DNA of 43,482 bases. Source: Candidatus Kaiserbacteria bacterium (GTDB taxonomy: Bacteria; Patescibacteriota; Minisyncoccia; Phycocordibacterales; UBA918). The stretch spans positions 1-43,482 of the forward strand of contig JAYVHQ010000017.1 of the NCBI GenBank assembly GCA_043771035.1. The letters are read 5' to 3'. Every line of letters begins with the position of its first letter. Within the stretch, counting starts at the first letter, position 1. Below, piece by piece: positions 4,801 through 22,936 of this stretch. The position numbers and the translations under genes were made by a program. The notes below the pieces were generated by a model that saw only the letters and a program-made list of their open reading frames with translations, had not been told where the DNA came from and searched no databases.

Positions 4801-7800
4801 TCTGTGATAATGTGATGCTGCTAGTTAGATCAGACGTGTCTTTAATTCCAGCATTGGCTGACAAAAATGTAACATTGCCATCGATCACTCCACCACTACT
4901 GGTGGCAATATTTGTCGTATTATTTCCGTCGGTGAGATTGGCTGTATTAAACATATTCCAGTCATCATTTGCAGCACCAACGCTCGTCCACACACTAACC
5001 GCACTACAAGAAGTAATTTTTGGCCCATACTCGAGTTGATACTGTACAGCCGATGAAGTGGCTGAGCCTTCATTACTAATACCAATCCGTAACCTGATTG
5101 TGGAGCCGGCTCCATGTTCAGTGAGAAGCGTATTGACACTTCCGCCGGTAGCAGAAGAGGCTGTTGTTTCACTGCCGTTATCAGTCCGCCAATGATAACC
5201 AGTTTGGGCCAAAATTGCGCCTGATAACGTAGTCGTACCTGAAAGCAACACTGGTGTAGTCGGACCAACTGCGCCACTAGAAATAGTGACGTCATTACCT
5301 CCGTTACTAATTTCGATTTCGATTGTTTCGCCATTAGTAGCACCGCTCACGATATCAAACACTACATACACACACATCGCTTGAGTGGTAGTTATCGCTA
5401 CAGAACCAGAAAACGTCGAGCTTCCATTAATATCAGAAAAGCCATCGGTATCTGTTGCCCCAAATTGAAGTTCTGATCCAGCATATGATTCACTGACACA
5501 GTTGTAAGGTGCAGTGGTATCGAGGTCATACCGTAGTTTTATATTATCCAAACTACTCGTGGCATTAACCGTACCAGTTTCGGTGACGGTAATAGCTGTC
5601 ACGTTTCGGGAGCTAACATTTTCTGTGAACGAAAAAGATCCACCGATCATCAGATTTGTTGAGGGAATAACGGCCGAAGAAACTTGCGTCCCCGTTGTAC
5701 CAAGTGTTACATCTGCTGAGACCGTCACCGCTGCATATTGACTATATACAGGCAGAGGTGTGCCAGCGTTTGTTACTCTAAAACAATAGGTGGTTCCCTG
5801 TGAAGCTGATGATGAGGCTACGATAGAGTATTCGATTTCAGTAAAGTTTGTTGTAGCTAAAATCAGTCCTCCAGTCTGTGAAGTGGTATCCAATTGTCCA
5901 CCATTTGGCGTTAAAAAAGTTGTATTTTCATTTACCATTCCCCCGCTTCCCACCGTAATATCAGTTGTATTAGTGCCATTTATGACAAAACTTGAATCAG
6001 ACATACCCCACGCGTCATTCACGGCATTTACATCGGTCCAGCCAGTAGCTACTTCACATGTAGGCGCAGCTTCTGCATATTCCAACCTAAATTGCGTAAC
6101 TGGACTTGAAAGCGTTCCTTCGTTTGAAACTTGTACTCTTAAACGACGGGGTGTGTTTTGGAGTAACGCTGGTAATGGGGTGTCAGCGGTACCGAGGGTG
6201 GCTGAGGTAGCAGCCGTTTCGTTGCCGTTATCATTGCGCCAATGGTAGTGAGTCTGGGTTAAGGTATCGTTATTAATCACTGTCCCAGAGAGAAATGCTA
6301 CGGCAGTTGCAGGAGTAACTACTCCCCCACCTGAAACCAAAATGTCGACTGCGGGATTATTAACATACATTCGTAATGTAGAAGAACTTAAAGCTGAGTC
6401 TAATACATCAACCACGGTATACACACACATTGCCCGAACTGGACTAATATTTACCAAGCCATTGAAAGAAGAAACTCCATCACTACCACTAAAACCATTT
6501 ATATCAGTTGAACCAAATTGAGCTTCTAAACCAGAGTAGGATTCACTGACACAGTCATACGGCGTAGTGGTATCAATATCATACAAAACTTTTATATTTT
6601 TTATGGCGTTACTGGCGTCCACTGTGCCATTTTCTGAAATAGTAATATCTGTCACGTTACGGCTAACCTGATTTTCTTTTAGTAATATTGTGCCTCCAGT
6701 ATAAACATTAGTGGAACTCGCCGACACAGACGCAGTTGGGGTACCTAAAGTAGAAGCTTTTGTAACCGGCGCAATATCGGCTACGGTATTTCCAAAAATT
6801 TCGTCAGGATTAGTCCCGGGGTCTTCCCATGACGCATAAATACGTTCGTCACTCATGATGTTCATATCAAGACCATACATATCGGCAGTCACGGTATTAA
6901 CCGGTCCTCTCTCGGCACTCCAGGCAGACATGGCGCTCGTTGAGGTAGCGTAATAGACATTACCAGTAGTAGCAGTAGCGGGGGTTGTACGCAAAACGTA
7001 CGCTACGTACACCTCGCCTAGATTTACATCTAGGGATATAGCAACTCCATGTAAGCCTCTGGTTGTATTTGTAAATACATTTGCTGTTGCTGACCATGAA
7101 CCACTCACGTATTTTGCCGTTCTCACATCGTGGTCAAGTACCGTATAGTTATCATTATCAGCCGCATAGGCTAAATAGATATCTCCCGTTATCTGATCTT
7201 GTGTCAAAGCCATACCAACATCATAGGTAGCGCTGTGAACAGCGTTACTATCAACCGCTAACCAGCTACCAGACCAAGCTGTTCCATTCCAGACTTTTGA
7301 TCGAATATCAAAAGCAGAAATATCACGATTTACCAAAAGCATGTCACCTCCTAAAAGCGGCATTAAGATACTCCAGTCATTGGCCGCCTCAGTGTATGGC
7401 GTCGTAATTTCACCCCAACCACCAGTTGTATTACAGCTACTACTACACCTGACTACAAATGAATCCGAGACGGCAGGCGAAGTCATATAAAGCACGCCGT
7501 CAGTACCTTTAGAGATTGACTGTTCATTTGTTCCCGCGACATACACAGGAACTTGGCCGGAATTTACGATAGTACTGATGGGTGCCGACCCCAGTAACCT
7601 GGTATCACTAGTTGTATCGAGCCTGTTATACCAAAGATCGTCATTACCAACATCCATAGTTGAGATGTGAATGTTGGTTCCAGAGTCCCCGGGCGTCCAA
7701 CCGTCATACCACACAGCAATGCTGGTACAGTCAGTTTGAGCATCAACAATAACGGCGGCACTCCACGCATTACCACCGTTGGTAGTTTTACTATAGGAAC

Positions 7801-8059
7801 ATTCTCCACCACCATCTACAAAAAATTTATACCCGACTTGATCAGATATAAACACTGTCTGTGAACCAGCAAATAAATGCTCAGTAGCAGTAGTACTAAC
7901 AGCTCCGTCAATAGTGACTACCGCAGCTTCGGCGACTTTTGGCACTAAGAATTCTAAAAAAGTTAATTGCGTTGCCACAATTACAAAAATAAGTCCGGCC
8001 GTAATAATACGCTGTCTAAAGTTACAACTAAAAAACGAAGGATACCTCCCCATGGTCAT
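1898..8059 (-). CDS. Giant (2,053 aa) secreted surface protein. It has an N-terminal signal anchor, a BNR/Asp-box-like beta-propeller, a 2 x 350-codon tandem repeat, a unique ~370-aa region, further YxW/YCFR-type beta-sandwich modules and a C-terminal pilin/WxL-like domain.
   Basis: The ORF is uninterrupted for 6.2 kb. The N-terminus IITAGLIFVIVATQLTFLEFLVPKVAEAA/VV looks like a signal peptide or anchor. The composition is Thr/Ser/Gly/Asn-rich and poor in charged residues, typical of extracellular beta-rich proteins. There is no LPXTG and no C-terminal TM. Confidence 0.9.
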   Translation of the reverse strand: MTMGRYPSFFSCNFRQRIITAGLIFVIVATQLTFLEFLVPKVAEAAVVTIDGAVSTTATEHLFAGSQTVFISDQVGYKFFVDGGGECSYSKTTNGGNAWSAAVIVDAQTDCTSIAVWYDGWTPGDSGTNIHISTMDVGNDDLWYNRLDTTSDTRLLGSAPISTIVNSGQVPVYVAGTNEQSISKGTDGVLYMTSPAVSDSFVVRCSSSCNTTGGWGEITTPYTEAANDWSILMPLLGGDMLLVNRDISAFDIRSKVWNGTAWSGSWLAVDSNAVHSATYDVGMALTQDQITGDIYLAYAADNDNYTVLDHDVRTAKYVSGSWSATANVFTNTTRGLHGVAISLDVNLGEVYVAYVLRTTPATATTGNVYYATSTSAMSAWSAERGPVNTVTADMYGLDMNIMSDERIYASWEDPGTNPDEIFGNTVADIAPVTKASTLGTPTASVSASSTNVYTGGTILLKENQVSRNVTDITISENGTVDASNAIKNIKVLYDIDTTTPYDCVSESYSGLEAQFGSTDINGFSGSDGVSSFNGLVNISPVRAMCVYTVVDVLDSALSSSTLRMYVNNPAVDILVSGGGVVTPATAVAFLSGTVINNDTLTQTHYHWRNDNGNETAATSATLGTADTPLPALLQNTPRRLRVQVSNEGTLSSPVTQFRLEYAEAAPTCEVATGWTDVNAVNDAWGMSDSSFVINGTNTTDITVGSGGMVNENTTFLTPNGGQLDTTSQTGGLILATTNFTEIEYSIVASSSASQGTTYCFRVTNAGTPLPVYSQYAAVTVSADVTLGTTGTQVSSAVIPSTNLMIGGSFSFTENVSSRNVTAITVTETGTVNATSSLDNIKLRYDLDTTAPYNCVSESYAGSELQFGATDTDGFSDINGSSTFSGSVAITTTQAMCVYVVFDIVSGATNGETIEIEISNGGNDVTISSGAVGPTTPVLLSGTTTLSGAILAQTGYHWRTDNGSETTASSATGGSVNTLLTEHGAGSTIRLRIGISNEGSATSSAVQYQLEYGPKITSCSAVSVWTSVGAANDDWNMFNTANLTDGNNTTNIATSSGGVIDGNVTFLSANAGIKDTSDLTSSITLSQTGFTELEYSITSTGITANNTIYCFRVTDASTELGQYDNYAEIKTAPKRDFKIQRGTSNVTGTGLTLTAGVDYVAPASSTRAFVRITNTQITGAGKNTLGGAQNAKDVTAYISNPGNLATSFTIARPPSPINNTQVYWEIIEFIAEAGTDNEMKVLSVATTSLASIATSSTGFIVPGVSDNADVVVFITGIANRDAGRNFYYAGAVTSQWISSTSRPFLERGAGGAIIDVSYAVVEYTGINWNIERVEHTYSSSTVIETESISPVNSLARTFIHTQKRINALGNVNNFGHEVWLSSIGSLSFKLEDAATTPASHTSVAWVIENQQTSAGAMKVQRSNGNTTDGTEPVVLAVPIFSPLETVTNASIWGTARVVGANSNFPLAMTGLSITSTSSYVVWRSEASTALLTYRTEIVEWPINGLAVRQNYYRIYADNNSLLPTDPWPPGVSNLGENTPLSITDQPLGEADRVRLRMSLRVTNANLPAGLYDFKLQYGLRVTSCTAVSPWTDVGAAGGAAVWRGYNATGTTNGVPLSTNPPVFGDLLLSVSDRAGSYVEENPAPANPYGANPTEEIEFDWQLEHNGALERSVYCFKMVRADGTTLDGYFNYPQIRTAGFTPQTQNWRWYDDSASETPSGPLAVENNAPVEIQNGNNLALRVTVGEAKNVRGQNVKFKVQFDENPNFTNPRDVTSTSSCVATSTWCYALGGGLDNATITTKVLSDANSCASSAGIGCGTHNTSGTFALGDTHLPSANREYAFYLKQGIARVGVVYYFRLYDTLNEVQVPLKVGSVNPSLVSETAKLSLTITGLPSGTTTAGVVTTATSTPAAINFGFIPLDTPWYSAHRIQINTNATEGYRVLSYARQQLLNSYGTAIPSIAATNLAPSSWALGCVASSTGCIGYHTTDATLGLGSTRFAPLDSYAGLQTTPQEVMYSSLPASDVHDILYRVSVSSLQPAGIYETEIVYLAVPTY
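1901..2415 (-). other. C-terminal class-1 module (pilin/WxL-like beta-sandwich) of the 2,053-aa protein.
   Basis: The segment LSLTITGLPSGTT..AAINFGFIPLD..HRIQINTNATEGYRVLSYARQQL...LQPAGIYETEIVYLAVPTY aligns motif for motif with the C-terminus of the 383-aa protein (14106..14670): FTFTVAGLPGGTD..TAIPFGQLVAD..QRLSVSTNASYGFAVTVQVDQQL...LQEAGNDYTATLTYVATPVF. Confidence 0.5.
4660..6770 (-). repeat. Tandem duplication of a ~1.05-kb (350-codon) unit inside the 2,053-aa gene.
   Basis: Homologous landmarks HYHWRNDNG (Y codon at 6247) and GYHWRTDNG (Y codon at 5197) are exactly 1,050 nt apart. The flanking peptides are collinear: NVTDITISENGTVDASNAIKNIKVLYDIDTTTPYDCVSESYSG versus NVTAITVTETGTVNATSSLDNIKLRYDLDTTAPYNCVSESYAG. 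Both units end in YCFRVT. Confidence 0.85.
6770..7925 (-). other. BNR/sialidase-like beta-propeller region (N-terminal domain of the 2,053-aa protein).
   Basis: There is an Asp-box-like KTTNGGNAWS (compare S-x-D-x-G-x-T-W). Blade-like motifs recur: VWNGTAWSGSW, YVSGSWSATANV and AMSAWSAERG. Confidence 0.4.
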
Positions 8060-8142: not shown

Positions 8143-9651
8143 CTAAATACTAACGGCTTCTGATGCTGGAGCCACATATGGTGGTATCGATAGCGTTCCG
8201 GTATCTTCAGTCATAATTACAGGCGGATTTAAATCCAAAGTAAGCTCGTGAAGACTGCCTGAAGTTGAGGAAGCTACTACAGTACTACCAGCAGTAGCAT
8301 TAGAGGATGAAGCGATTACCAAATCGTTTGGTTGTGGACTAGGTGGGTTACTACCGACTGGCTCTTTAGGGGGAAGGATGTTCTCTGCAATATCAGTATC
8401 TTCCTTAGTAGGATTCTTCCCTTGTAGTAGTGCTCTAGTCTCACCGGTGGAGTCAGGTTCAGGTAAGTCCTCTGGCAAATCGGCCGCTTTACTAGCTAGG
8501 GGGGTAATTTCACCAGTATCTACATCATACCCTTTGGTTATGATGTCACCATTAGCAAACTCCGTTTCATAGACTAAAACCATCCGGGGGTTAGATAGTG
8601 CGCCGCCTTCTGTATCACTAATGGTGGTCAGTTCTTTGGTGACAATGTCATACAATTCAATAGTCTGGGTGTTGTCAGAATTTAAACGATTCCACATTAC
8701 TAAATCACCTTTTATTTTAGGAGCAATGTCATGTTGCTCACTCTGTGTAAGGTACATTGTTTCAACACCGTCATACAACACAACATCCCAGTTGTTATTA
8801 TTCCATCTTTGCCAAACAGTGAAGTCGCCCGCCCTACTGGGCTCCATATTGTTAACGGTATCAGCCGTTAATTGAACTTCGGTGTTGGATGTTAAATCAA
8901 AAGAAATTATTTGGTATCTTTCATTAATCTGTCTATGCCAGACTATGGTGTTTGATTTTGAATCAAAATAAGGGGCAGCATCATCAACTGTATTGAATGT
9001 AAGCTGTGTCAGTTCAGCATTTTTTTGTAAAAAAATCTCTAAGTCCCCATCAATATCTTGAAGGGAATACAGTCCATCAGTTGTAGTATCCGTCGCATCT
9101 TTTTTAACTTGGCAATAAAATGATCCGTCCTCGACTGTCACACAGTCACTCTTATCGAACTGCACTACTTGGTCACTGTAGACAGTAGAAATAGCTACGG
9201 GGATTTCGGTTGAAGATGCGGTGGTCGTGCTGGCTTCTGCTATATCATAAGCAGCAATCTCATCTTCATCATTGATAAGATCTTGGATTTCTTGATCAGA
9301 AAATATAGTAGTGGTCACCGTAGTACTAGCATTATCACTAGTAGCAAGCGAGGTTGAGGTTGAGGTTGTAGAGGTTGGGTCAGTGGTACTCACAGAAGGT
9401 ATGGTCACAGATTCAGTAGTGTCAGTAGTAGTGTTAGTTAAATTAGCATCAACAGCCAAGTTAATTATCTCAGGAACAGCTAGCTCAGCAAAGTCAGTTT
9501 GACTCGCATATAAACGAGACATTGGTTGTAGTAAAAAAGAAAGGCACAAACACAAAACCACCGCAGTAGATACACGGGAACAAAACACGTTACGGTAGAG
9601 AGTTACCTGACGTGGTCTTATATTTTTTTGAATTTGGTTGGCTTTGTTCAC
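8143..9651 (-). CDS. Membrane-anchored surface protein with a Thr/Ser-rich stalk, beta-propeller-type repeats and a Pro/Ser-rich C-terminal tail.
   Basis: The 502-codon ORF has a GTG start at 9651 (the codon reads gtg on the minus strand). There is a hydrophobic segment VSTAVVLCLCLSFLL. A low-complexity stretch TTDTTESVTIPSVSTTDPTSTTSTSTS follows. Repeats of the type IVWHRQINERYQIISFDLTSNTEVQLT, FTVWQRWNNNNWDVVLYDG and LVMWNRLNSDNTQTIELYDIVTKELTTIS resemble TolB-like or archaeal beta-propeller repeats. Confidence 0.75.
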   Translation of the reverse strand: MNKANQIQKNIRPRQVTLYRNVFCSRVSTAVVLCLCLSFLLQPMSRLYASQTDFAELAVPEIINLAVDANLTNTTTDTTESVTIPSVSTTDPTSTTSTSTSLATSDNASTTVTTTIFSDQEIQDLINDEDEIAAYDIAEASTTTASSTEIPVAISTVYSDQVVQFDKSDCVTVEDGSFYCQVKKDATDTTTDGLYSLQDIDGDLEIFLQKNAELTQLTFNTVDDAAPYFDSKSNTIVWHRQINERYQIISFDLTSNTEVQLTADTVNNMEPSRAGDFTVWQRWNNNNWDVVLYDGVETMYLTQSEQHDIAPKIKGDLVMWNRLNSDNTQTIELYDIVTKELTTISDTEGGALSNPRMVLVYETEFANGDIITKGYDVDTGEITPLASKAADLPEDLPEPDSTGETRALLQGKNPTKEDTDIAENILPPKEPVGSNPPSPQPNDLVIASSSNATAGSTVVASSTSGSLHELTLDLNPPVIMTEDTGTLSIPPYVAPASEAVSI

Positions 9652-9765: not shown

Positions 9766-10524
9766 TTATTTTGTAAAGTAATCTGAAAGTAAAATAGAAA
9801 AATCCCGGAACGTCATTTGCCCATCATTATTAAAATCAAATTTTTGCTGGCGACTGGTCCAGTTGGCCATAAAAGAACTAATATCACGCAGTGATACCTC
9901 ACCATCGCCATCTATGTCCGTCACCACAGCAAAACCTACACTCCCCTCCAAAGTAGTGCCATCAGCTGGTTTTGCACCCAAAGCAAACACCTGAGTAGTA
10001 ATTTTCGCTCGCGATATATCGGCGTTGATAGCAGTACCTTTCCCATCTCCCGCTAAAAGCTTTACCTCACCGGCAAAAAATTGTGCGCTACCAGCTGTTT
10101 TAGCCTTAACATTAATCGTAGCAATTTTATGCTCACCCACAAATCCTCTTTTAAAAGTACCACCACGCAAAATAACTTTATCGTTACTCACAAAGGGCTC
10201 TTCTGTCCACAAGGTAATTACCGAATTACCTTTATCGATACCTAAAACTTCGACCTGACCTAAAGGATAGGCCAAACTGATGTCAACAGCGTTCACGGGA
10301 GCATCAGCAAAGACAAATACATCAAGTGAAAATGTCGAACCAATTTCAACATTAGTCTCACTAGACACTACTTTTATATAGGACCCCTTCGTACCAGAGA
10401 CGGCCGCAATGCTCGCAATCGCCGCAAAGACAAACAAAAAAGAAAAGGCATAGCGAACAGTCGGAGAGTTTTTTAAGCCCAGAGTTGGAAAAACTTTGAT
10501 TAAAGCTCTCCGTACTAAACTCAT
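9766..10524 (-). CDS. Secreted or anchored protein with a cohesin-like domain and a C-terminal type-I-dockerin-like module.
   Basis: The N-terminal hydrophobic segment is YAFSFLFVFAAIASIAAVSG. The cohesin-like core (about 10014..10389) reads VEIGSTFSLDVFVFADAPVNAVDISLAYPLGQVEVLGIDKGNSVITLW...KIATINVKAKTAGSAQFF..LLAGDGKGT. The dockerin-like duplicated Ca-loop (9769..9927) reads DIDGDGEVSLRDISSFMANW ... DFNNDGQMTFRDFSILLSDY. The ATGA start/stop overlap with 10521..11198 indicates translational coupling. Confidence 0.8.
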   Translation of the reverse strand: MSLVRRALIKVFPTLGLKNSPTVRYAFSFLFVFAAIASIAAVSGTKGSYIKVVSSETNVEIGSTFSLDVFVFADAPVNAVDISLAYPLGQVEVLGIDKGNSVITLWTEEPFVSNDKVILRGGTFKRGFVGEHKIATINVKAKTAGSAQFFAGEVKLLAGDGKGTAINADISRAKITTQVFALGAKPADGTTLEGSVGFAVVTDIDGDGEVSLRDISSFMANWTSRQQKFDFNNDGQMTFRDFSILLSDYFTK

Positions 10525-11198
10525 AGAGCTAAAGCCTCAGTTTTATTTACCTCAATCTGTTTACTTAAAACAACCATTTGACCTCTCACCTTGTTAACTT
10601 CACCAAGAGTGGCGACAATTTCCGGAGAAGCAGAACTCTTGCCTGTACGTAGTTCATTAATAATAGTCCCTTGCAGAGATACTAAACTATTAAAATATTC
10701 AGCCGTCTTTAGTTCGGCTTCAGCCAATGCCTGCCACGATTGAATTTTTTTGCTTTGATCTGACGGCATTTTTTGTAAAGATTCACGAAGGGTAATGTAG
10801 TCTGAAAATATTTGTACTTCACGAACAAGTCTCGTGGCCATGACAGATTTACGATCAGCGTAAAATCCTCCACATTTATAAAATAAAGTATCAAGCTCGG
10901 CTAATTCAACTGCGGTAATTGCCCCCGACAATGAATCAAGCAGCACATCAAATCTTTGTCTCTGTGTGGCTTTGCAGTCGACAATGATTCTTTCTGTTGG
11001 TGCATCTGCACCATTAACTCTCGTGATATCAGCTAGTTTAACAAGCAGGAGTTCTTGCGCGGATATCGCAGCATCAATTTGAGTAAGCGCTAGTTTACTT
11101 TGCCCATACAAGTACTGTTTTATTCCAAAAAAAGAAATTATAAACAAGGTAATAACGCCAGCAATAATCAGACTTATTCTTTTGGTGTTTGCTTTCAT
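10521..11198 (-). CDS. Single-pass membrane protein with a helical extracytoplasmic domain. Function unknown.
   Basis: The 225-aa ORF has an N-terminal TM (ISLIIAGVITLFIISFFGI), and the rest is helix-prone. It is packed tightly in the cohesin operon, 8 nt after the upstream stop, with a 4-nt overlap onto the downstream start. Confidence 0.65.
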   Translation of the reverse strand: MKANTKRISLIIAGVITLFIISFFGIKQYLYGQSKLALTQIDAAISAQELLLVKLADITRVNGADAPTERIIVDCKATQRQRFDVLLDSLSGAITAVELAELDTLFYKCGGFYADRKSVMATRLVREVQIFSDYITLRESLQKMPSDQSKKIQSWQALAEAELKTAEYFNSLVSLQGTIINELRTGKSSASPEIVATLGEVNKVRGQMVVLSKQIEVNKTEALAL

Positions 11199-11206
11199 AT
11201 CAGGAA

Positions 11207-12958
11207 TTATTTTTTAAAGACAGTAGTAACATCATGCACCTCTTTTCCTACTCGATTTTTTGCTTCAGCAATCACTGCTCTTAGCTCTGAGAATAATTCG
11301 GTTTCAAATTTACTCAATTTGTTAGTTTTATGTGAAGCCACACATTTTGCTTCTTGAGCTTTCAGGACCTGTTCCAGATGGTAAAACTCTGCCTCTAACA
11401 TCAGCTCAGCTTCATTAGATTCTACTATAACTCGTTTACGCAAGCGACCCATTTTTTGGATTGAATACAAAAGTGTCAACCATGTCAATACACACAAAGC
11501 AATCAAAGGAATAAGCACCGAGAGGAAACTAATGAGAAATGTACCAACCGCTACATAGCCTGGCTTTGATACAGTAATAGTTACGGTATCTGAAGGTTCA
11601 CTTTGGGCACCAAAGGTATCGGTAGCAGTGACACTCAAGGTATACCGTCCGACAACAAACGACTCAGCTGGTATTAATGAAAACGCACCACTGCCGTCAG
11701 CTGTTGCGCTCAGAGTCTGCTCTACTCCAGCTGGTGAAGTGAGTAAACCAACTACCGTAGCATTTGGTTTGGTGGTACCTAAAAAGGCAGGTATAACACC
11801 AACATTGAGAGTTGCTGGAAATTGTGTAATAAGTGGCTTTTCAAAAGAGGTAATGGTAAACGAGAGTGTGGCTATAAGTGAATTCATCGCCGCATCAAAC
11901 CCTTCAATCACCACTGTATGATAACCAGGAGCAAGCGAGGGCAAGATAAGGTTTGCTGGTGTATTAGTTGCGCTGTATTCATAAGGTACGGCTCCATCAA
12001 TCTGTACTTTAAAAAGCTTTACACTCGAGGTTTTATCTACAGTATTAAGAGAAACAGTTTGATTTGGATTTGAAAAGTCAGCATTATCTGCCAGTTTAAT
12101 TTCAAACGACTCAGGTTTTTGTGAATCAATGGCAATTTTATAATGTTTGATTTTACCCCAACCATCAGCATTTTTAAACTGAACATGGAGATAAGACACT
12201 CCCTCAGGCACATCTGAAATAGATAGTGTTTTAATTGGACTGTCGTAGACTTTGGTGGGAATGGCTATCGGACTGGTATCAAGACCGGTTCGTACGGCTA
12301 CTACACCAGCTGGCACCGTCCAGTTAAAGACCGCATTTTTTTCCTTTGACCACTTTGCTTCGTCAGGGTGGGAATTTGAGGTAATTTGTGGCGCTGCTGG
12401 TGTATTGGCTGGCGCAACGAATTCCACTATTACCTCAGGTGCTGGCTGGGATTCCACCACTGATAGAGTGTAGGTTCCGCCGCTCATATTTGTGAGAACA
12501 TTAGTCCCCTTTCCATCAGCAGCCAAAACAGAGGCCCCCGTTAGTGAAATCCGGGCAGCACCTGAAGTAAGTGATTTGAAGGTAACGGTAAACACAGCCC
12601 CCGCAGTACCGGTATAGCCAGTAGGAACTCCACCACTAAATGTCACCGTACCGGCTGAGTTTGAAAACGTTGGCTCGGTAGTCCATAAACTAAAAATAGA
12701 TGAGCTCCGAGAGGCGGCCACGACCGATAGTTCACGAGGATTAAACGACAGTGTTCCGTCAGCGGCATTAACAGGAACTCCAGAGGTGTTGACATACACG
12801 GTGACTGAAAAAGTCGCGCCTGTTTTATAGACTCCCGTACTCGGTGATACAAGCAACGTAGCCGCACTTGCAAAATAAGGCGTTACCAAAAAGAGCGCCC
12901 CAAACAGGATAGCTACGACTGTAGTATGTTTTAGTGTTCGCACTTTTGTTATTAGCAT
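11207..12958 (-). CDS. Membrane-anchored cohesin-like scaffold protein. It has a signal peptide, a cohesin-like domain, Ig-like domains, a TM helix and a cytoplasmic coiled-coil tail.
   Basis: The signal peptide is VVAILFGALFLVTPYFASA/ATL. The cohesin-like core (about 12463..12862) reads LLVSPSTGVYKTGATFSVTVYVNTSGVPVNAADGTLSFNPRELSVV...SIFSLWTTEP...GAVFTVTFKSLTSGAARISL..VLAADGKGT. The TM helix is VAVGTFLISFLSVLIPLIALCVLTWLTLLY. A charged helical tail follows. Confidence 0.8.
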   Translation of the reverse strand: MLITKVRTLKHTTVVAILFGALFLVTPYFASAATLLVSPSTGVYKTGATFSVTVYVNTSGVPVNAADGTLSFNPRELSVVAASRSSSIFSLWTTEPTFSNSAGTVTFSGGVPTGYTGTAGAVFTVTFKSLTSGAARISLTGASVLAADGKGTNVLTNMSGGTYTLSVVESQPAPEVIVEFVAPANTPAAPQITSNSHPDEAKWSKEKNAVFNWTVPAGVVAVRTGLDTSPIAIPTKVYDSPIKTLSISDVPEGVSYLHVQFKNADGWGKIKHYKIAIDSQKPESFEIKLADNADFSNPNQTVSLNTVDKTSSVKLFKVQIDGAVPYEYSATNTPANLILPSLAPGYHTVVIEGFDAAMNSLIATLSFTITSFEKPLITQFPATLNVGVIPAFLGTTKPNATVVGLLTSPAGVEQTLSATADGSGAFSLIPAESFVVGRYTLSVTATDTFGAQSEPSDTVTITVSKPGYVAVGTFLISFLSVLIPLIALCVLTWLTLLYSIQKMGRLRKRVIVESNEAELMLEAEFYHLEQVLKAQEAKCVASHKTNKLSKFETELFSELRAVIAEAKNRVGKEVHDVTTVFKK

Positions 12959-12967
12959 AGGAAATGA

Positions 12968-13972
12968 TTAAAGGACTATATCGTCACTGGCCGGTGAAAC
13001 AAACTTTTTTTGCGCTCGTCTTTTCCGCACTTGCCAAATCACCAATAGAACAACAATGAACAAAGTTGCACCCAGAGCCAGTAGCACCAATAGCTCGGTA
13101 CTGAGAACAAATTTTTGGTGAGCGGTATCGATAGGTAGGGTGACAATATATTCATTACCAGCTTTATCAATGGCACGCACCCGGACTACACTATTACGAC
13201 TTTGGTCTTTGAGTAAATGTGGGCTTTTAGTTTTTACCCAAGGTGCATTGGCTGCTCCAAAGTTAAATAATTTAGACTGTTTATAACTCTCTTCAATCAC
13301 TTCATAATGGCTAATGCCTGTCTGTTTATCAGTAGTGTTAAAGACTACGTACCATTGATTATTTATAGATTCTATGCTGGCACTAAAGTCCTCAGGTGGC
13401 AGTTCGTCAGACTGCACATCAGTACTCCACGGATCTAAAATTTCGGCTCCTACTGTATCAGCCAGAGTAAAATTAGCACCAAACTTTTGTAGATTTGCTT
13501 GCGTACCTTTACCGTCATTTAGATACGCTGTTGTGGCATCAGTAAATTGTACAGTGGCGGCGCTACGGGCCTCCCCACCACCCACCTGCATACCGGGTGC
13601 CCTAAAGAAAATTTCAACTAACGTATTAGTGAGATTGGGGTCACCTTGCACCCGTCCACAATAGCCATTAGGGATGCCTCCGGCGAAACTTATAGTCCGA
13701 TTTTCTTTATTAATAACGGGTGCCTCTACCCAAATTGGAAAGATAGATTTACCAACGGTAATGTCGACAGGAATAATACTCTCACTATAGGAAACAACCG
13801 CGTCCACGGCATTAATACACTCACCTGCTGCCTCATCAGTATCTAATCTAATCGAAATTTTAGTAGCGTCGCCACGATTTAGACTGGCTGTGTTTGGGTC
13901 CATGTACAAAGTGGCAGCCGAAACTGTCTGCACCGAAAATAGCAAAAAAAGAATCCCGAGAAAATACCTCAT
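12968..13972 (-). CDS. Membrane-anchored cohesin-like protein with a signal peptide, a cohesin-like domain, a second beta domain and a C-terminal TM plus basic tail.
   Basis: Track ORF 12968..14029 is trimmed to ATG 13972, giving MRYFLGILFLLFSVQTVSA/ATLYMDP. The 19 upstream codons overlap the terminator hairpin of the preceding gene. The cohesin-like core (about 13460..13915) reads ATKISIRLDTDEAAGECINAVDAVVSYSESIIPVDITVGKSIFPIW...LVEIFFRAPG...YLNDGKGT. The TM is LLVLLALGATLFIVVLLVIW followed by QVRKRRAQKK. Confidence 0.75.
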   Translation of the reverse strand: MRYFLGILFLLFSVQTVSAATLYMDPNTASLNRGDATKISIRLDTDEAAGECINAVDAVVSYSESIIPVDITVGKSIFPIWVEAPVINKENRTISFAGGIPNGYCGRVQGDPNLTNTLVEIFFRAPGMQVGGGEARSAATVQFTDATTAYLNDGKGTQANLQKFGANFTLADTVGAEILDPWSTDVQSDELPPEDFSASIESINNQWYVVFNTTDKQTGISHYEVIEESYKQSKLFNFGAANAPWVKTKSPHLLKDQSRNSVVRVRAIDKAGNEYIVTLPIDTAHQKFVLSTELLVLLALGATLFIVVLLVIWQVRKRRAQKKFVSPASDDIVL

Positions 13973-14020
13973 AGTGATTATAGTATAGCTCAAAGTAAAG
14001 TACCTAAGGCCAGCTTGTAC

Positions 14021-14059
14021 ACAAAGCAAAAACCCTACTCGTGGTGGGAGATAGGGTTT
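14021..14059 (-). terminator. Rho-independent terminator of the 383-aa gene.
   Basis: The minus strand reads AAACCCTATCTCC-CACCAC-GAGTAGGGTTT followed by TTGCTTTGT. The stem is 8+3 bp (30-37 pairing with 52-59, and 38-40 with 48-50) with a 1-nt bulge. It lies 44 nt after the stop at 14103. Confidence 0.6.
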
Positions 14060-14102: not shown

Positions 14103-15254
14103 TTAGAATACTGGTGTTGCTACGTATGTCAGCGTAGCGGTGTAATCATTTCCTGCTTCTTGCAAAGCAGTTATTTCAACTTGATAGGCCACATCAGCAC
14201 GCCCAATATTTTGAGTCGTACCATCAGCTGGTCCACCGTGACGAAATACCTGTACTGGTGTCGTTGACGCTGAAACAAAACGGTCACCAGTTGAACTTGC
14301 GTTAAATGGGTCCAACAATCCGAACGTTGCGTCATTAGAGGTAATACCCCAGTGACCCCACGTATTTTCGTTTGAGATTGATGGTGATGGTGGCGCCCAA
14401 GACACAGGTGTTGATGTGTAGGCCCCATCAATGAAACCGTCAATATCCGCACCTGATGACGAAGTCAACTGCTGATCTACCTGCACTGTTACCGCAAAGC
14501 CATAACTAGCATTAGTAGATACACTTAACCTCTGTCCTGCTGATGAGGCAGTATCAGCAACGAGTTGCCCAAATGGAATCGCGGTTGCCGTTGATGATCC
14601 AGTTGTTATCAGACTGTTGACGTCAGTACCGCCTGGCAAACCAGCTACCGTAAAGGTAAAACTAGTATCCACAGCAGCGGTGACAACAACTGGTGCAATA
14701 ATGGCTACTCGAGTTGACCCAGTATCACTTGCTCCAGCCGTAATATCGATTTCATACGATCCTACAGTAGGGTTTCGTAACTGTCTGGTTCCTGTTACTC
14801 CAAAGTTGGCATGCTTACCAATTTTAATGGTAGTTGTGCCCGCTGGGTCGATTGATGCTCCGTCACCACTACAAAAAGTGAGCGTAATGAGGTTAGTACT
14901 GGTTGCAAATCCAATTTCATCGGTAGCGGCACAACTGGCAGCCACACTAAGGTTAGTGCTACCGTCAATTACGTCAACATCAGCAAAAGTGGTACTCCCG
15001 AGTAGAAACGGTCCATTAGCTAAACTTATAGTAATAGTTGAACCATTTGCAATACCAGTTGGTGTTACAAAGGTCAGCGTATGGTTTGATCCAACACTCG
15101 GTGCTGAATCAGAGAGGGTGTCGCTAAGCGACGTGACACTTGCAGCTTCGGCGAACCGAAGTGACGGCAAACCGATTGACCATAATAATATGGCAAAGGC
15201 TGCAATCGCTGCAATAGCTTGGAGTAGCCCGAACGTGGTATTCGTTCTACTCAT
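14103..15254 (-). CDS. Secreted 383-aa protein with a class-1 pilin/WxL-like C-terminal module. It is a candidate major surface or fibre subunit.
   Basis: The signal peptide is LLQAIAAIAAFAILLWSIGLPSLRFAEAA/S. This is the same AEAA motif as in the 2,053-aa protein. The protein is Thr/Ser/Gly-rich with no TM or LPXTG at the C-terminus. The gene is monocistronic, sitting between a 573-bp AT-rich upstream region and its own terminator. Confidence 0.85.
   Translation of the reverse strand: MSRTNTTFGLLQAIAAIAAFAILLWSIGLPSLRFAEAASVTSLSDTLSDSAPSVGSNHTLTFVTPTGIANGSTITISLANGPFLLGSTTFADVDVIDGSTNLSVAASCAATDEIGFATSTNLITLTFCSGDGASIDPAGTTTIKIGKHANFGVTGTRQLRNPTVGSYEIDITAGASDTGSTRVAIIAPVVVTAAVDTSFTFTVAGLPGGTDVNSLITTGSSTATAIPFGQLVADTASSAGQRLSVSTNASYGFAVTVQVDQQLTSSSGADIDGFIDGAYTSTPVSWAPPSPSISNENTWGHWGITSNDATFGLLDPFNASSTGDRFVSASTTPVQVFRHGGPADGTTQNIGRADVAYQVEITALQEAGNDYTATLTYVATPVF
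14106..14670 (-). other. C-terminal class-1 module of the 383-aa protein, homologous to 1901..2415.
   Basis: See the alignment under feature 1901..2415. The ending GNDYTATLTYVATPVF resembles the terminal G-x-Y-x-x-x-L-x-W-x-L-x-x-x-P motif of WxL domains, with W replaced by Y. Confidence 0.5.
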
Positions 15255-16504: not shown

Positions 16505-16523
16505 TAGAAGTAATTCAGTTACA

Positions 16524-16974: not shown

Positions 16975-17099
16975 TAAAACTTTATAAAATTAGTGCAATT
17001 CGAGGCAGGCAAGGAAAATCTTGCGAGCCGTACTTATTGTACGGTGAGTAAGATTTTACCGCAGCCTAACGAAGAAGTGTGCAATTTTATAAAGTTTTA
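16975..17099 (+). repeat. E-element copy E1, a 125-bp unit with 17-bp perfect terminal inverted repeats and a conserved internal hairpin. It is either MITE-like or a structured RNA.
   Basis: The ends read TAAAACTTTATAAAATT ... AATTTTATAAAGTTTTA. The internal part reads GCAAGGAAAATCTTGCGAGCCGTAC-TTATT-GTACGGTGAGTAAGATTTTACCGCAGC. The right end supplies part of the TAA stop (17097-17099) of the dockerin gene. Confidence 0.75.
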
Positions 17100-18212
17100 G
17101 CCGGTCCAGTTGAAAAGTAGGATAGAAAAGTCTTCAAGACTCACTCTTCCATTCGCATTGATATCAGCCGGTGGATTTGAGTCGCCGCCGGCACTTTGCC
17201 ACCAGAAGATGAGGATGGAGAAGTCGACGAGGTTTACTTTGCCGTCACGACTGAGGTCTGACGGTGAGGTGGTTTTGCCATCGACACCAACAAATAGCTG
17301 TACCGAGCTACTAAAACCACTCTGAGTTAAGAGAGGGGCGGTGCCAGAAACTGACCGGGCTTTAATAGTGTACTCGGCATTTCTTAGTCTGCTTGAATTA
17401 AAGTTTAGGGCGAATTTGCCGTCAGGTCCACTTTGAATCGACTCAACAATTTCACTATTATTAAAATGTACATCAACTTTGACTGACGGAATACTTTGGC
17501 CAGTAATGGCAATGATACTGCCGGGGATGACATTCGCGTTGGCCACAATCATGGTCGGTGGCAAGATAAGCCCGCTAACGTTCGTTACGGCCCCCTGGGT
17601 GACATCAAAGGTGTTATTGAGTGTAATGGAGCGTTTACCAGCGGAATCAAGCGCCCAGACGCCAAGCGTGGCCGCGCCTGGTGAAGCATTGGCTGCAAAT
17701 TCAAACCGGCCAGTACTATTGGCGCGGACAGAACCGATAGATTTAGTATCGAGTAAAAAATTTATTGTTTGATTAGGGTAACCAAGCCCGGTAACACTGA
17801 CTTGAGTGGCTCCTAATTCTTTGACACCTCCCCCACTACTACCGCCACCGCCAGAGGAACCGCCACCACCACTACCGGCTGGTTCGATCTTACACAAAGC
17901 CGAACAAAAGTCTAAACTGGTATTATTTCCGTCATCACACTCCTCCGTAAATTGTGTCTGTAAAACCCCGTCACCACAGTAAGGCCCATAGTTACAACTG
18001 ACCGTACACTGCCTGCCCGTAATGGTTGTACTGTAGACACCGGTCTCACCAGGAGCGTCACATTGTTCTGAGGCATCTACCAAACTATTACCACAAATAC
18101 TTAGGGTAATTGTTGTAGTCGCAACACCGACTGTTTCAGCGAACACAAATGGCGTACATGTAAAAATAATGACTACGAGCTGTAGTAATGAAAAAAGGGC
18201 AGGTAGTTTCAT
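17097..18212 (-). CDS. Secreted protein with Cys-rich repeats (Myxococcus-type CxxCDDGN repeats), a Gly/Ser linker, Ig-like domains and a C-terminal dockerin-like module.
   Basis: The signal peptide is MKLPALFSLLQLVVIIFTCTPFVFA/ETV. The Cys-rich repeats (about 17888..18095) read CGNSLVDASEQCDAPGE...C and YCGDGVLQTQFTEECDDGNNTSLDFCSALC. The linker is GSGGGGSSGGGGSSGGG. The dockerin-like module (17100..17261) reads DLSRDGKVNLVDFSILIFWW ... DINANGRVSLEDFSILLFNW. The gene starts 1 nt after the upstream stop. Confidence 0.8.
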   Translation of the reverse strand: MKLPALFSLLQLVVIIFTCTPFVFAETVGVATTTITLSICGNSLVDASEQCDAPGETGVYSTTITGRQCTVSCNYGPYCGDGVLQTQFTEECDDGNNTSLDFCSALCKIEPAGSGGGGSSGGGGSSGGGVKELGATQVSVTGLGYPNQTINFLLDTKSIGSVRANSTGRFEFAANASPGAATLGVWALDSAGKRSITLNNTFDVTQGAVTNVSGLILPPTMIVANANVIPGSIIAITGQSIPSVKVDVHFNNSEIVESIQSGPDGKFALNFNSSRLRNAEYTIKARSVSGTAPLLTQSGFSSSVQLFVGVDGKTTSPSDLSRDGKVNLVDFSILIFWWQSAGGDSNPPADINANGRVSLEDFSILLFNWTG

Positions 18213-18213
18213 A

Positions 18214-19179
18214 TTAGCTAATCAGCGAATCATCCTTACGTCCTTGACGTCTGTAGTAAATGAAATACAAAACAGCGATTATAAAGGCAAATAATGGCAG
18301 TAACACCGAAATCTTATGCGGGATTGAAAGACCACCAAAACCGTACCCGGCAGTTTGTAGAGTGCCATACGCCAAGATACTGAGATTAAGTTCTCCTTCT
18401 TGTTTCACCTCATCATTATTAAAAATTGTATAACGTGCCATATAACTACCTGCTGGTAGTTTAGTTGGTAAGTACGCAGTAATTTCTTCGGTTGCATACG
18501 GTGCAATCTTTTTTAGCCTACCGCTATGTTTTGTCTCTTCGAGTAAAACTGCTCCCGTTCTATCATAAATTCTAAATTGAACTTTCGAAGGTGCGATATC
18601 TACGTTACCGGTATTTTCGAGCGACATCTTGAAATTGATTTTTCCAGGGAAAAATAACCAGCCGAGTTTATGTCCCGCATCAAGATCAAGAACATCAATT
18701 TTTCGCACTCTAAAATCCTCGATTACACGATCAATCACATTGAGATTAATATCAACTTGGGCTCCAAGAGAAATACTGACAACTCCTTCAGCTACCTGAT
18801 CATCGGTCGGTTGTGTCCTGATACGAATCTTTCCTTCATATTCACGGTACGCGGCATCAGCTGGAACTTTAACTCGTACAGTCATGGCGACTTTTTGTTC
18901 ACCACGCGGCATAAGTATAGTTGTCCCTTCAACAATTTCTATCCAGTCTTGAATTTCTGGAGCATCAACCATAATCTGAGCATTCAGTGGTGCGTTAGGG
19001 TCACCACGTACGAGCAGTATCTGCTGCTCGTACGTTGAGTTACGGGTAAGACTGGTATTACGAACATACGGTGGAGTGATACCAAAACTGGCGCTCGCAA
19101 CCAATGTGCCAAACGCAAAATAAAGTATGACAACGAGCGAGCTCAATTGAAATAATGATGTGCAGGTGAGTGACTTCAT
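18214..19179 (-). CDS. Surface-complex anchor-like protein, paralog 3. It has a signal peptide, two beta-sandwich-like domains, a C-terminal TM helix and a basic tail.
   Basis: The signal peptide is LSSLVVILYFAFGTLVASA/SFG. Domain 1 ends in ...AYREYEGKIRIRTQP. Domain 2 contains KMSLENTGNVDIAPSKVQFRIYD...LPAGSYMARYTIFN. The TM is ISVLLPLFAFIIAVLYFIYY followed by RRQGRKDD. The layout matches paralogs 1 and 2. Confidence 0.8.
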   Translation of the reverse strand: MKSLTCTSLFQLSSLVVILYFAFGTLVASASFGITPPYVRNTSLTRNSTYEQQILLVRGDPNAPLNAQIMVDAPEIQDWIEIVEGTTILMPRGEQKVAMTVRVKVPADAAYREYEGKIRIRTQPTDDQVAEGVVSISLGAQVDINLNVIDRVIEDFRVRKIDVLDLDAGHKLGWLFFPGKINFKMSLENTGNVDIAPSKVQFRIYDRTGAVLLEETKHSGRLKKIAPYATEEITAYLPTKLPAGSYMARYTIFNNDEVKQEGELNLSILAYGTLQTAGYGFGGLSIPHKISVLLPLFAFIIAVLYFIYYRRQGRKDDSLIS

Positions 19180-21467: not shown

Positions 21468-22676
21468 TTATTCATAGCGAATGGCGTCGAGGGGATTCAA
21501 AGACGATGCACGGCGAGCGGGAAAAATTCCGGTCAAGTAACCCACAATGGCCGAGAAGACAATAATGAATGCGAGAAATCCAAGCGGAAATGCGAACAGT
21601 GTTACCGACTGACCTCCAAATTGACCGGCAACAAGATTGAGAAACAAATTTATAGTCATCCCTAATGTCACTCCCATCAACACACCAGTTAACCCTCCCA
21701 TAAAACCGACCACCACTGACTCAGATACGAAAAGATATTTCACATCGTTTGGTGACGCACCAATAGTACGCATAATTCCAATTTCTTTGGTTCGTTCGAG
21801 CAAGGTTACCGTCATCGTATTAAACATGCCGATAGCTGACACCAAAAGCGCAATACCCCCAAAAGTTGCTAACACCGCTTGTACCCCTTGGAAAATCTTT
21901 GAAGCTTGCTCGACAGTTTTAGACAAGGCGGTTACGCGGTACCCTTCTTCAATAAGCTGTTTTTCAATAATTGGTAAATTTTCATTACTGTCTACGCGAA
22001 CTTGGATACGTTCATATTCCTCGACACCAACATAATTACGCAGCTCAGGTAACATCATCATGGCATTGAGCACGCCTTCTTCTTTGGTAATACCACGGAC
22101 GGTATATTCTTTATCGATTACTACTTCAGTATTAGTATCTGAGCCATCCTCTGCTGGTATAAGCAATCTGAAACTTACCTTTTGCCCGATGAACGCCTTA
22201 GGATCTTCTATGCCGAACAATTTTAATACTGCCGGCGACAGCATCACCGAATTTACATCAGCAGCATCAGCGTCAGTAAAAACTACTCCTTCAGTAGCGG
22301 TTACTCCAGCATATCGCAAGTAAGGCGGCTCAACCCCTTGAATAAATACATTGCCCGTCAAACCTTTAAACGTAACCAGGGCAGGAAATTTAGCGAGCGG
22401 GGCAGCGTCGAGTACCTCAGGTTTTTTTTCAAAGGCGGCGACAGTTTCCGAAGTAAGTTTTAGGTTTTGGGCACCAGTAGCTGACACTCCGAGGGAAAGC
22501 AGGGTTTCGCCGAACACAATTTGCTCCAAAATAATCTGCTGCAGGCCAAAACCTAAACCCACAAGAATAACCACTGCCCCCGTCCCCACACCCATACCCA
22601 AAATCGTCAACCACGTTCGCAGTGGATTAGTCTTAAACATACGCGTCGAGAGCTGAGCGAGATCTTGAATTCTCAT
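21468..22676 (-). CDS. ABC transporter permease, FtsX/MacB family, with four TM helices and a large extracytoplasmic domain between TM1 and TM2.
   Basis: The N-terminus MRIQDLAQLSTRMFKTNPLRTWLTILGMGVGTGAVVILVGLGFG is typical of MacB/FtsX permeases. A soluble insert of ~215 aa follows. The C-terminal FtsX-type three-TM bundle ends ...GIFPARRASSLNPLDAIRYE, the family-typical tail. Confidence 0.85.
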   Translation of the reverse strand: MRIQDLAQLSTRMFKTNPLRTWLTILGMGVGTGAVVILVGLGFGLQQIILEQIVFGETLLSLGVSATGAQNLKLTSETVAAFEKKPEVLDAAPLAKFPALVTFKGLTGNVFIQGVEPPYLRYAGVTATEGVVFTDADAADVNSVMLSPAVLKLFGIEDPKAFIGQKVSFRLLIPAEDGSDTNTEVVIDKEYTVRGITKEEGVLNAMMMLPELRNYVGVEEYERIQVRVDSNENLPIIEKQLIEEGYRVTALSKTVEQASKIFQGVQAVLATFGGIALLVSAIGMFNTMTVTLLERTKEIGIMRTIGASPNDVKYLFVSESVVVGFMGGLTGVLMGVTLGMTINLFLNLVAGQFGGQSVTLFAFPLGFLAFIIVFSAIVGYLTGIFPARRASSLNPLDAIRYE

Positions 22677-22902: not shown

Positions 22903-22936
22903 CATAAACATACAACCTTGCGGTTGTTGTTATGCT
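22901..22936 (-). terminator. Hairpin with a GCAA tetraloop overlapping the ATPase stop codon. It may be an intra-operon attenuator or stabiliser.
   Basis: The minus strand reads AGCATAA-CA-ACAACC-GCAA-GGTTGT-ATGT-TTATGCT, followed by TTGTTCCCGATTTGC. That is two 6-bp helices with an internal loop. The U-tract is weak. Confidence 0.3.

Follow-up and report, generated by a model that had tools for sequence, protein, structure and literature searches.

The window analysed here, a stretch of 43,482 nucleotides (nt) from a Candidatus Kaiserbacteria bacterium (contig JAYVHQ010000017.1), encodes a group of proteins with cohesin and dockerin modules, which are named below by their lengths in amino acids (aa). 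We interpret the group as a membrane-anchored, non-cellulosomal and non-enzymatic cohesin-dockerin docking set that forms the core of a conserved envelope or surface locus of Paceibacteria, and assign a probability of about 0.55 to this interpretation. It starts from the identity of the modules, the predicted topology of the proteins, the synteny of the locus and the co-conservation of its genes, all of which were observed; binding between the modules, the pairs that they form, display at the surface and a role in adhesion are what we infer from these observations. A scan of all six frames of the 43 kb with family-specific hidden Markov models (HMMs) returned exactly three cohesins and two dockerins.

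Identity of the cohesin and dockerin modules

An earlier sequence-only reading of this DNA had placed cohesin-like domains on three proteins. All three ranges were borne out: they correspond to residues 46-170 in the 252-aa, 33-165 in the 583-aa and 39-190 in the 353-aa protein. The following features were assigned (Ig, immunoglobulin; pLDDT, predicted local distance difference test; ORF, open reading frame).

11207..12958, minus strand: 583-aa protein; signal peptide, cohesin, three Ig-like domains, transmembrane helix, cytoplasmic helices
12455..12862, minus strand: cohesin of the 583-aa protein; residues 33-168; family HMM score 166.7 bits; β-sandwich strands at 33-166 with high pLDDT
12968..14029, minus strand: 353-aa ORF; signal peptide, cohesin, one Ig-like domain, transmembrane helix, short basic tail
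13442..13918, minus strand: cohesin of the 353-aa protein; residues 38-196; linked to the other two by hhalign; family HMM score 151.2 bits
9766..10524, minus strand: 252-aa protein; N-terminal hydrophobic helix, cohesin, dockerin; AlphaFold2 model
9976..10389, minus strand: cohesin of the 252-aa protein; residues 46-183; top Foldseek matches are cohesins; profile homology to the other two

The HMMER check suggested together with that reading gave a divided result: Dockerin_1 matches were obtained, but the Pfam Cohesin model (PF00963) missed the copies in the window and found orthologues of the 583-aa protein. PF00963 was matched by 24 of 35 such orthologues (best E 3.7e-10), and the one from Wolfebacteria cleared the gathering score with 24.9 against 24.1 bits. 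Some of these orthologues already carry the label "Cohesin domain" at JGI. Among homologues of the 252-aa protein, precomputed annotations listed PF00963 for 3 of 120. Searches of the PDB sequences with the 583-aa protein (phmmer) and with the full-length profile of its family returned Ig-like matches only; phmmer found no cohesin.

The three modules were connected to one another by profile-profile comparison of their families. In hhalign, the cohesins of the 583- and 353-aa proteins were homologous at 99.9% (E 4.9e-34), those of the 252- and 583-aa proteins at 99.5% (E 1.8e-22) and those of the 252- and 353-aa proteins at 98.8% (E 5.8e-17). When a combined profile of the three families was compared with the PDB sequences, nine of the ten matches were cohesins (best E 0.0013), each of them marginal and together unanimous.

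Structure prediction gave the same assignment. The AlphaFold2 model of the 252-aa protein had block-mean pLDDT values of about 75-93 in the sandwich, and almost all of its top 50 fold matches in the PDB were cohesins, with target TM-scores of 0.65-0.78 and root mean square deviations of 2.5-3.8 Å over ~140 residues. The model showed the nine-stranded flattened β-sandwich (jelly-roll) of cohesins. The non-cellulosomal cohesin 2xdh from Archaeoglobus fulgidus was matched with an E value of 6.3e-9 and a target TM-score of 0.76; further cohesin matches were 2vo8 (Clostridium perfringens), 4ums, 4dh2, 1g1k, 1ohz and 1anu. For the cohesin in the 583-aa protein, AlphaFold2 gave a model of high pLDDT; a Foldseek search with the whole model of this protein was swamped by tandem Ig/FN3 chains and was uninformative on the cohesin module. 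The module of the 353-aa protein was assigned by profile homology only. By transitive profile evidence and by fold, the three modules are cohesins. A generic Ig fold or a chance resemblance was considered and rejected on the profile links, the cohesin fold matches, the PDB profile matches and the conservation of the Ca-loops. The proposal of cohesins had been made refutable by a fold of the generic Ig type, and it withstood this test, as the fold matches of the 252-aa model have the cohesin jelly-roll.

Duplicated dockerin Ca-loops had been claimed for the 252-aa protein and for the protein at 17097-18212, and both claims held. DIDGDGEVSLRD and DFNNDGQMTFRD lie at residues 203 and 230 of the former, and DLSRDGKVNLVD and DINANGRVSLED at residues 319 and 350 of the latter, the 371-aa protein.

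9769..9927, minus strand: dockerin of the 252-aa protein; residues 200-252; loops 203-214 and 230-241; Dockerin_1 score 22.1 bits plus EF-hand matches
17097..18212, minus strand: 371-aa secreted protein; Cys-rich DUF4215 repeats, Gly-rich linker, Big_6, CarboxypepD_reg-like domain, C-terminal dockerin
17100..17267, minus strand: dockerin of the 371-aa protein; residues 316-371; Dockerin_1 score 24.1 bits

With the gathering cut-off of Dockerin_1 (PF00404) at 22.9 bits, the 371-aa protein scored above the threshold and the 252-aa protein just below it. Dockerin_1 was matched by 25 of 26 orthologues of the 371-aa protein (best E 4.3e-8), and the two dockerin families were homologous to each other at 97.7% (E 1.8e-12, hhalign). 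In alignments of 59-65 sequences per family, the Ca-ligand positions 1, 3, 5 and 12 were essentially invariant D/N in all four loops: positions 1, 5 and 12 were D or N in 86-100% of the sequences, and position 3 was N, D or S. Each loop was followed by a conserved amphipathic helix, modelled at residues 212-224 and 239-251 of the 252-aa protein. The predicted Ca coordination, on which the sequence-only reading had staked its dockerins, is thus retained in both segments.

Membrane anchoring and the dockerin bearers

The two larger cohesin proteins had been described as carrying a C-terminal transmembrane helix and a cytoplasmic tail, and the larger of them a charged cytoplasmic coiled coil of ~90 aa. 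Hydropathy and the AlphaFold2 model supported the first point, and the second was recovered as a conserved helical tail of 88 residues. The segments were placed as follows.

11567..12334, minus strand: Ig-like stalk of the 583-aa protein; three domains, residues 209-464; strands in the AlphaFold2 model; tandem Ig/FN3 fold matches
11474..11548, minus strand: C-terminal transmembrane helix of the 583-aa protein; residues 471-495; hydropathy 2.67; continuous helix 471-542 in the model
11210..11473, minus strand: cytoplasmic tail of the 583-aa protein; 88 residues, all-helical, 33% charged, with conserved positions
13031..13105, minus strand: C-terminal transmembrane helix of the 353-aa protein; hydropathy 3.24
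10393..10449, minus strand: N-terminal transmembrane helix or signal anchor of the 252-aa protein; residues 26-44; hydropathy 2.13; helix 21-43 in the model

The signal peptides are followed by AATL at the start of the cohesin, and that of the 583-aa protein ends in ...ASA/ATL. In the AlphaFold2 model the cohesin is the N-terminal, membrane-distal domain and sits on a high-confidence stalk of three β-domains, the last of which was identified by Pfam as Big_13 (E 2.8e-8). The linker between the cohesin and the first Ig-like domain (window 12334-12460, residues 167-208, PEVIVEYVAPANTPAAPxITSxTHxDxxxW) is one of the best-conserved parts of the sequence and was modelled at low confidence, with pLDDT <50 at residues 170-178. 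This linker may be a binding segment or a segment that spans the wall. A coupling between outside and inside through the cytoplasmic tail, as proposed in the sequence-only reading, is speculation.

The 353-aa ORF opens at a TTG codon. On identical contigs the gene was called as 334 aa from an ATG at 13972 (MRYFLG...), and this start leaves a normal signal peptide on the 334-aa form. The product is probably this 334-aa protein.

The 252-aa protein has 945 homologues of ~250 aa. Its hydrophobic helix is preceded by a conserved N-region of 25 residues, and T22 and F27 are invariant in the family. The cohesin begins within about three residues of the helix, and a low-confidence linker of ~20 residues joins it to the dockerin in the model. 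This protein had been described as an adaptor; it is probably itself tethered to the membrane. If its N-terminal helix is retained, all three cohesins would be membrane-tethered, at three different heights.

The description of the two dockerin bearers as an adaptor and a Cys-rich-repeat protein, both non-enzymatic, agreed with Pfam; the conserved helix at residues 26-44 of the adaptor had gone unnoted. In the 371-aa family the N-terminal head differs between lineages and the Ig-Ig-dockerin part is constant, as would be expected of a displayed ligand-binding tip. The claim that the set lacks cargo enzymes held for the range covered by the family HMM scan, which is the window and ±10 kb in 86 related loci. 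Within this range no dockerin-bearing enzyme was found, and none of the cluster proteins gave a glycoside hydrolase or peptidase match in Pfam. Dockerins carried by glycoside hydrolases or other enzymes, as in a cellulosome, were thus not encountered there. Cellulosomes are further defined by a multi-cohesin scaffoldin with a carbohydrate-binding module (CBM) and by anchoring through S-layer homology (SLH) domains or sortase. Here each cohesin protein carried one cohesin, Pfam found no CBM or SLH domain in them, and anchoring was by transmembrane helix.

Conservation of the locus and possible pairing of the modules

Relatives of the 583-aa protein were surveyed with one genome scanned per species, and were found in at least 291 species-level genomes. 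Nearly all of these are named as Patescibacteria/Paceibacteria (Kaiserbacteria, Nomurabacteria, Paceibacterota, Wolfebacteria and Colwellbacteria), together with a few odd-labelled bins. The protein has >865 homologues with 50-72% identity and is conserved over its full length. In the window it belongs to a row of 14 genes in the order FN3 protein (480) - ABC ATPase (440) - MacB_PCD/FtsX permease (402) - 631 - 321 - 371 (dockerin) - 383 - 353 (cohesin) - 583 (cohesin) - 225 - 252 (cohesin-dockerin) - 502 - 2053 - ~340. This order was kept in 31 of 42 full-length comparison loci, a count that allows for truncation at the locus ends and for a 225-aa gene below the tblastn cut-off. The sequence-only reading had proposed a cohesin-dockerin network anchored in the cytoplasmic membrane. 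Module identity and transmembrane anchoring were supported, and what it had missed was this context, a 14-gene locus with a MacB-type transporter.

Across the 86 loci (±10 kb), cohesins occurred only on proteins of the 583-, 353- and 252-aa types and dockerins only on those of the 371- and 252-aa types (172 cohesin, 68 cohesin-dockerin and 62 dockerin proteins). Cohesin and dockerin genes co-occurred in every one of the 86. In the most distant loci, which come from Wolfebacteria, Colwellbacteria and other lineages and show 33-37% identity, the 225- and 252-aa genes are missing and a minimal triad is retained, in which one dockerin protein is followed directly by two cohesin proteins with transmembrane anchors. 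Of the indirect arguments for a cognate partnership of the modules, this triad is the strongest. In one Wolfebacteria locus (L081, 11771-13916), the 583-like gene is followed immediately downstream by SecD and SecF, and the ORFs inspected near the triad included no detected MacB-type transporter.

The recognition residues of the two dockerins were compared in the same 59-65 sequences per family. Loop positions 10-11 were L[KR]/F[RK] in the 252-aa dockerin and L[ITV]/LE in the 371-aa dockerin. In the type I dockerin complexes of C. thermocellum (1ohz) and C. cellulolyticum (2vn5), these positions contact the cohesin. The systematic difference suggests distinct specificities of the two dockerins. 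Mirror-tree comparisons were performed over 45 loci, with partial correlations controlled for the non-interface domains. The highest value was obtained for the dockerin and cohesin of the 252-aa protein (partial r 0.29), which is trivial since both belong to one polypeptide. The 371-aa dockerin and the 353-aa cohesin gave a partial r of 0.22 (permutation p 0.002), a weak hint of co-evolution, and the 252-aa dockerin and the 583-aa cohesin gave 0.13 (p 0.04). Net charge of the modules did not discriminate between the cohesin-dockerin pairs.

The remaining members of the locus and neighbouring ORFs were assigned as listed.

24738..26180, minus strand: 480-aa FN3-domain protein; upstream cluster member in many loci
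22930..24252, minus strand: ABC ATPase, 440 aa; ABC_tran at residues 26-174; C-terminal extension of ~215 aa with no recognised domain
21468..22676, minus strand: MacB-type ABC permease; MacB_PCD and FtsX, four transmembrane helices; conserved position
19272..21167, minus strand: 631-aa protein; N-terminally anchored, β-rich, conserved cluster member
18214..19179, minus strand: 321-aa protein; signal peptide, two Ig-like domains, C-terminal transmembrane helix; architecture like that of WxLIP
14103..15254, minus strand: 383-aa orphan secreted β-protein; C-terminal ~170 aa homologous to the C-terminus of the 2053-aa protein
10521..11198, minus strand: 225-aa protein; N-terminal transmembrane helix and helical domain; stop overlaps the start of the 252-aa gene by 4 nt
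8143..9651, minus strand: 502-aa secreted orphan protein; conserved downstream cluster member
1898..8059, minus strand: 2053-aa orphan surface protein; C-terminal domain common with the 383-aa protein
913-2232, minus strand: 439-aa ORF; about 335 nt in common with the 3' end of the 2053-aa gene

In the ORF list of the window, every gene from about 900 to 43438 is encoded on the minus strand. The 353-, 583-, 225- and 252-aa genes are separated by gaps of 9 and 8 nt and then by a 4-nt overlap, which points to a tight operon structure. No RNA family was found in the window by an Rfam scan, and a promoter and terminator scan gave nothing usefully above background. The 225-aa gene is weakly conserved, yet present in most extended loci, and had no informative Pfam match. 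Gene calls place the start of the 439-aa ORF just past the stop of the 2053-aa gene. The locus ends with this conserved gene, whose product contains three hydrophobic segments and gave no Pfam match.

The transporter pair consists of an ABC_tran ATPase (E 9.7e-32) and a four-helix permease with MacB_PCD (E 1.3e-18) and FtsX (E 1.2e-16), the composition of MacB-type transporters. The 383- and 2053-aa proteins are related through their C-terminal domains (99.7%, E 3.9e-26, hhalign). The 383-aa family has >1845 homologues without any Pfam domain. In the 2053-aa protein no domain was recognisable, and its 19 orthologues gave one weak BNR_2 match in Pfam. Family profiles of the 383-, 321- and 2053-aa proteins found nothing among the PDB sequences. 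The 321-aa Ig-Ig-transmembrane family is broad, with 837 clusters at 50% identity. Bacterial SH3 domains were observed in 8 of 62 distant members of this family (relatives P0361-P0510) and hint at an association with the cell wall.

Two further ORFs were noted. A giant ORF of 5743 aa (window 26207-43438, minus strand) lies directly upstream of the locus and contains two DUF2341 domains and one Ig_Rha78A_N domain; a simple hydropathy scan found no N-terminal transmembrane segment in it. Neither this giant nor the 2053-aa protein carried a cohesin or dockerin by the family-specific HMMs. A 190-aa ORF on the plus strand (15828-16400) occupies part of the 1.8 kb that separate the 371- and 383-aa genes, with a strong terminator-like hairpin at 16523-16546 (plus strand) on its 3' side. 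It had no Pfam match, was gene-called as 225 aa in locus L004, and, of the 86 loci, only those of the strain that the window comes from contain it. It has the appearance of an insertion into the operon that is specific to this lineage.

Proposed assembly, alternatives and known systems

In the proposed assembly, the two single-cohesin proteins would be exported by the Sec pathway and retained in the cytoplasmic membrane by their C-terminal helices. The 583-aa protein would lift its N-terminal cohesin on three Ig-like domains and the 353-aa protein on one. The secreted 371-aa protein would dock non-covalently, through its Ca-loop dockerin, onto one of these cohesins and be displayed at the cell surface with its lineage-variable Cys-rich head outward. 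In extended loci the 252-aa protein, with its N-terminal anchor, cohesin and dockerin, may add a second docking layer close to the membrane, and the recognition residues of its dockerin differ from those of the 371-aa dockerin. The co-inherited 383/2053-aa pair, the Ig-Ig-transmembrane protein and the MacB-type transporter are probably part of the same surface assembly, which would plausibly serve attachment to a host or substrate, or the architecture of the envelope, in episymbiotic cells. A bolder extension sees in the 14-gene locus an unrecognised, Patescibacteria-specific envelope machine for host attachment: a surface organelle held together non-covalently by cohesin-dockerin joints on membrane stalks, built or remodelled by MacB-type mechanotransmission and coupled to the cell interior through the cytoplasmic tail. 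We regard this extension as tentative and rather improbable.

Several observations weigh against the docking set. The Pfam Cohesin model gave no match at E<0.1 in any of the three window proteins and no direct match among 26 orthologues of the 353-aa protein. The signal from the co-evolution analysis is small, and gene adjacency confounds it. Three cohesins face two dockerins, and hence at least one cohesin has no assigned partner. The census of dockerin-bearing enzymes covers the window and ±10 kb of the 86 loci and is limited to that range. The ABC transporter is tied to the cohesin set by synteny alone and is not adjacent to it in the most distant loci.

Among the alternatives, we considered a purely structural role, in which the cohesin stalks are pillars linking the membrane to a surface layer or sheath. 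This layer would be made of the 383- and 2053-aa proteins, the 371-aa protein would provide the connection, and host binding would play no part. The 383-aa protein is conserved more than the cohesin proteins (62-87% identity among the homologues listed), the locus is near-universal within the clade, and the SH3 domains in relatives of the 321-aa protein fit such a scaffold. The common C-terminal domain of the 383/2053-aa pair follows the small-plus-large logic of the wall-associated WxL clusters (PMC10599100). However, lattice formation by the pair found no support, no S-layer or SLH domain was detected by Pfam in the locus proteins scanned (including the orthologues of the 383- and 2053-aa proteins), and the variable Cys-rich head of the 371-aa protein suits ligand binding better than a fixed structural joint. 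We therefore judge a structural scaffold of this kind unlikely, while giving it some weight.

The cohesins might instead capture dockerin-bearing hydrolases encoded elsewhere, as a mini-cellulosome or a predatory complex for which the 371- and 252-aa proteins are two of many clients. The excess of cohesins over local dockerins would then be spare capacity, and single-cohesin anchors of C. thermocellum do take up enzymes directly, with OlpA and OlpC (3ul4, 4dh2) appearing among the fold matches of the 252-aa model. Against this stand the lack of any further dockerin in the window or within ±10 kb of the 86 loci, the strict adjacency of the dockerin gene to two cohesin genes even in minimal loci, which points to a dedicated partner, and the absence of hydrolase and peptidase domains from the cluster proteins in Pfam. 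Enzyme recruitment is in our view distinctly improbable.

It is very unlikely, by our estimate, that the ligands of the cohesin-fold modules are glycans, further such modules or the C-terminal domain of the 383/2053-aa proteins, with the dockerin-like segments serving as Ca-stabilised EF-hand pairs. Such ligands would fit the divergence of the window cohesins from the Pfam model, the scoring of many 252-aa orthologues as EF-hand rather than Dockerin, and the presence of the non-cohesin adhesin domain CLIPPER (9ifr) among the fold matches of the 252-aa model. To our knowledge, most non-cellulosomal cohesins have no demonstrated partner. The co-occurrence of cohesin and dockerin genes in every locus, with direct adjacency in the minimal triad, argues otherwise, as does the duplicated loop-helix arrangement that both dockerins keep at the extreme C-terminus. 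Head-to-tail self-assembly, in which the dockerin of one 252-aa copy binds the cohesin of another to form chains or a lattice on the membrane surface, can be set aside as hardly credible: both modules lie on one polypeptide with a short linker and covary most strongly of all pairs, but such covariation is expected for two parts of one protein, and the gene is absent from minimal loci, which makes it an accessory layer.

The docking set was compared with characterised cohesin systems. Like OlpA, OlpC and SdbA of C. thermocellum, the proteins described here carry a single cohesin each that is predicted to tether a dockerin-bearing partner to the cell surface, and like the type I and II dockerins of cellulosomes, the dockerins are duplicated Ca-loop/helix modules at the C-terminus. 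In contrast to OlpA, OlpC and SdbA, a C-terminal transmembrane helix, with a cytoplasmic tail on the 583-aa protein, replaces SLH or sortase anchoring. Unlike in cellulosomes, the clients are non-enzymatic, a multi-cohesin scaffoldin and a CBM are lacking, and the host is a non-cellulolytic, ultra-small Patescibacterium. The cohesin-then-dockerin order of the 252-aa protein resembles the ScaC-type adaptor scaffoldins of R. flavefaciens, whose structures 5lxv and 4uyq were among the fold matches. Unlike ScaC, it carries a conserved hydrophobic anchor in its N-terminal part, with hardly any spacer before the cohesin, and it would be membrane-bound, not soluble, if the anchor is retained.

The best structural matches were the non-cellulosomal cohesins of Archaeoglobus fulgidus (2xdh) and Clostridium perfringens (2vo8, 2jh2), whose hosts have no cellulosome. 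Cohesin and dockerin in non-cellulosomal systems can lie on the same or on neighbouring proteins, as they do here. The C. perfringens modules ride on glycoside hydrolases and toxins, whereas those of the window belong to a syntenic multi-gene envelope locus with transmembrane anchoring. Non-cellulosomal cohesin and dockerin modules are reportedly widespread in all three domains of life.

Two further architectures resemble parts of the locus. TMEM132 and the choanoflagellate "coherins" consist of a cohesin, three bacterial-type Ig domains, a transmembrane segment and a tail, and a role in adhesion has been proposed for them (PMC6030884). The 583-aa protein matches this domain order, and the resemblance is architectural only. 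The TMEM132 Pfam family was absent from the families matched by its 35 orthologues at E<=0.01. We know of no dockerin partner for a TMEM132-type cohesin in animals. The WxL/Csc clusters of Firmicutes combine a WxLIP protein, defined by PF06030, PF11797 and a C-terminal transmembrane helix, with small and large WxL proteins that have a common C-terminal domain (PMC10599100). The 383/2053-aa pair with its common C-terminal domain, together with an Ig-Ig-transmembrane protein of ~300-350 aa, is similar; unlike the present locus, WxL clusters have no cohesin or dockerin. The WxL domain (PF13731) was found in none of 23 orthologues and 120 listed homologues of the 383-aa protein and in none of 19 orthologues of the 2053-aa protein. 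In distant loci, WxLIP_PGBD (PF06030) was the top Pfam match of four positional analogues of the 321-aa protein (E 1.6e-4, 2.4e-3, 0.01 and 0.01), all below the gathering score, and these analogues were linked to the 321-aa family by hhalign at 93.1%. PF06030 was matched by none of 24 members of the 321-aa family and by none of 62 diverse ones. Membership in the WxL clusters was therefore rejected, and the analogy was kept.

A literature search on cohesins and dockerins in Patescibacteria, the candidate phyla radiation (CPR) and Paceibacteria found no description of the present locus; a preprint on giant genes reports dockerin-like repeats of Omnitrophota, which are different from the system described here. 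The cohesin and dockerin modules themselves are not new. Within the literature searched, four features are: the direct transmembrane anchoring of single-cohesin proteins, one of which ends in a cytoplasmic coiled-coil tail that is conserved; a non-enzymatic dockerin protein that is encoded alongside the cohesin proteins and is their probable dedicated partner; the conservation of the triad and of the 14-gene locus with its MacB-type ABC transporter across Paceibacteria; and a TMEM132-like domain order in the 583-aa protein with no detectable membership in that sequence family.

Paceibacteria and their relatives make up a very large and almost wholly uncultured share of bacterial diversity. They are thought to live attached to other cells. 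Cohesin-dockerin is one of the strongest protein-protein joints known. A locus of mostly orphan surface proteins that is syntenic across hundreds of species is a concrete candidate for an attachment or envelope apparatus, and the docking hypothesis can be tested directly, given the small size and solubility of cohesin and dockerin modules and the ease with which they are assayed. If it is true, cohesin-dockerin biology would extend from the recruitment of enzymes to membrane-anchored structural or adhesive assemblies. The locus may also be a source of new orthogonal cohesin-dockerin pairs for protein engineering, and it would make the surface biology of this very large, uncultured lineage accessible to experiment.

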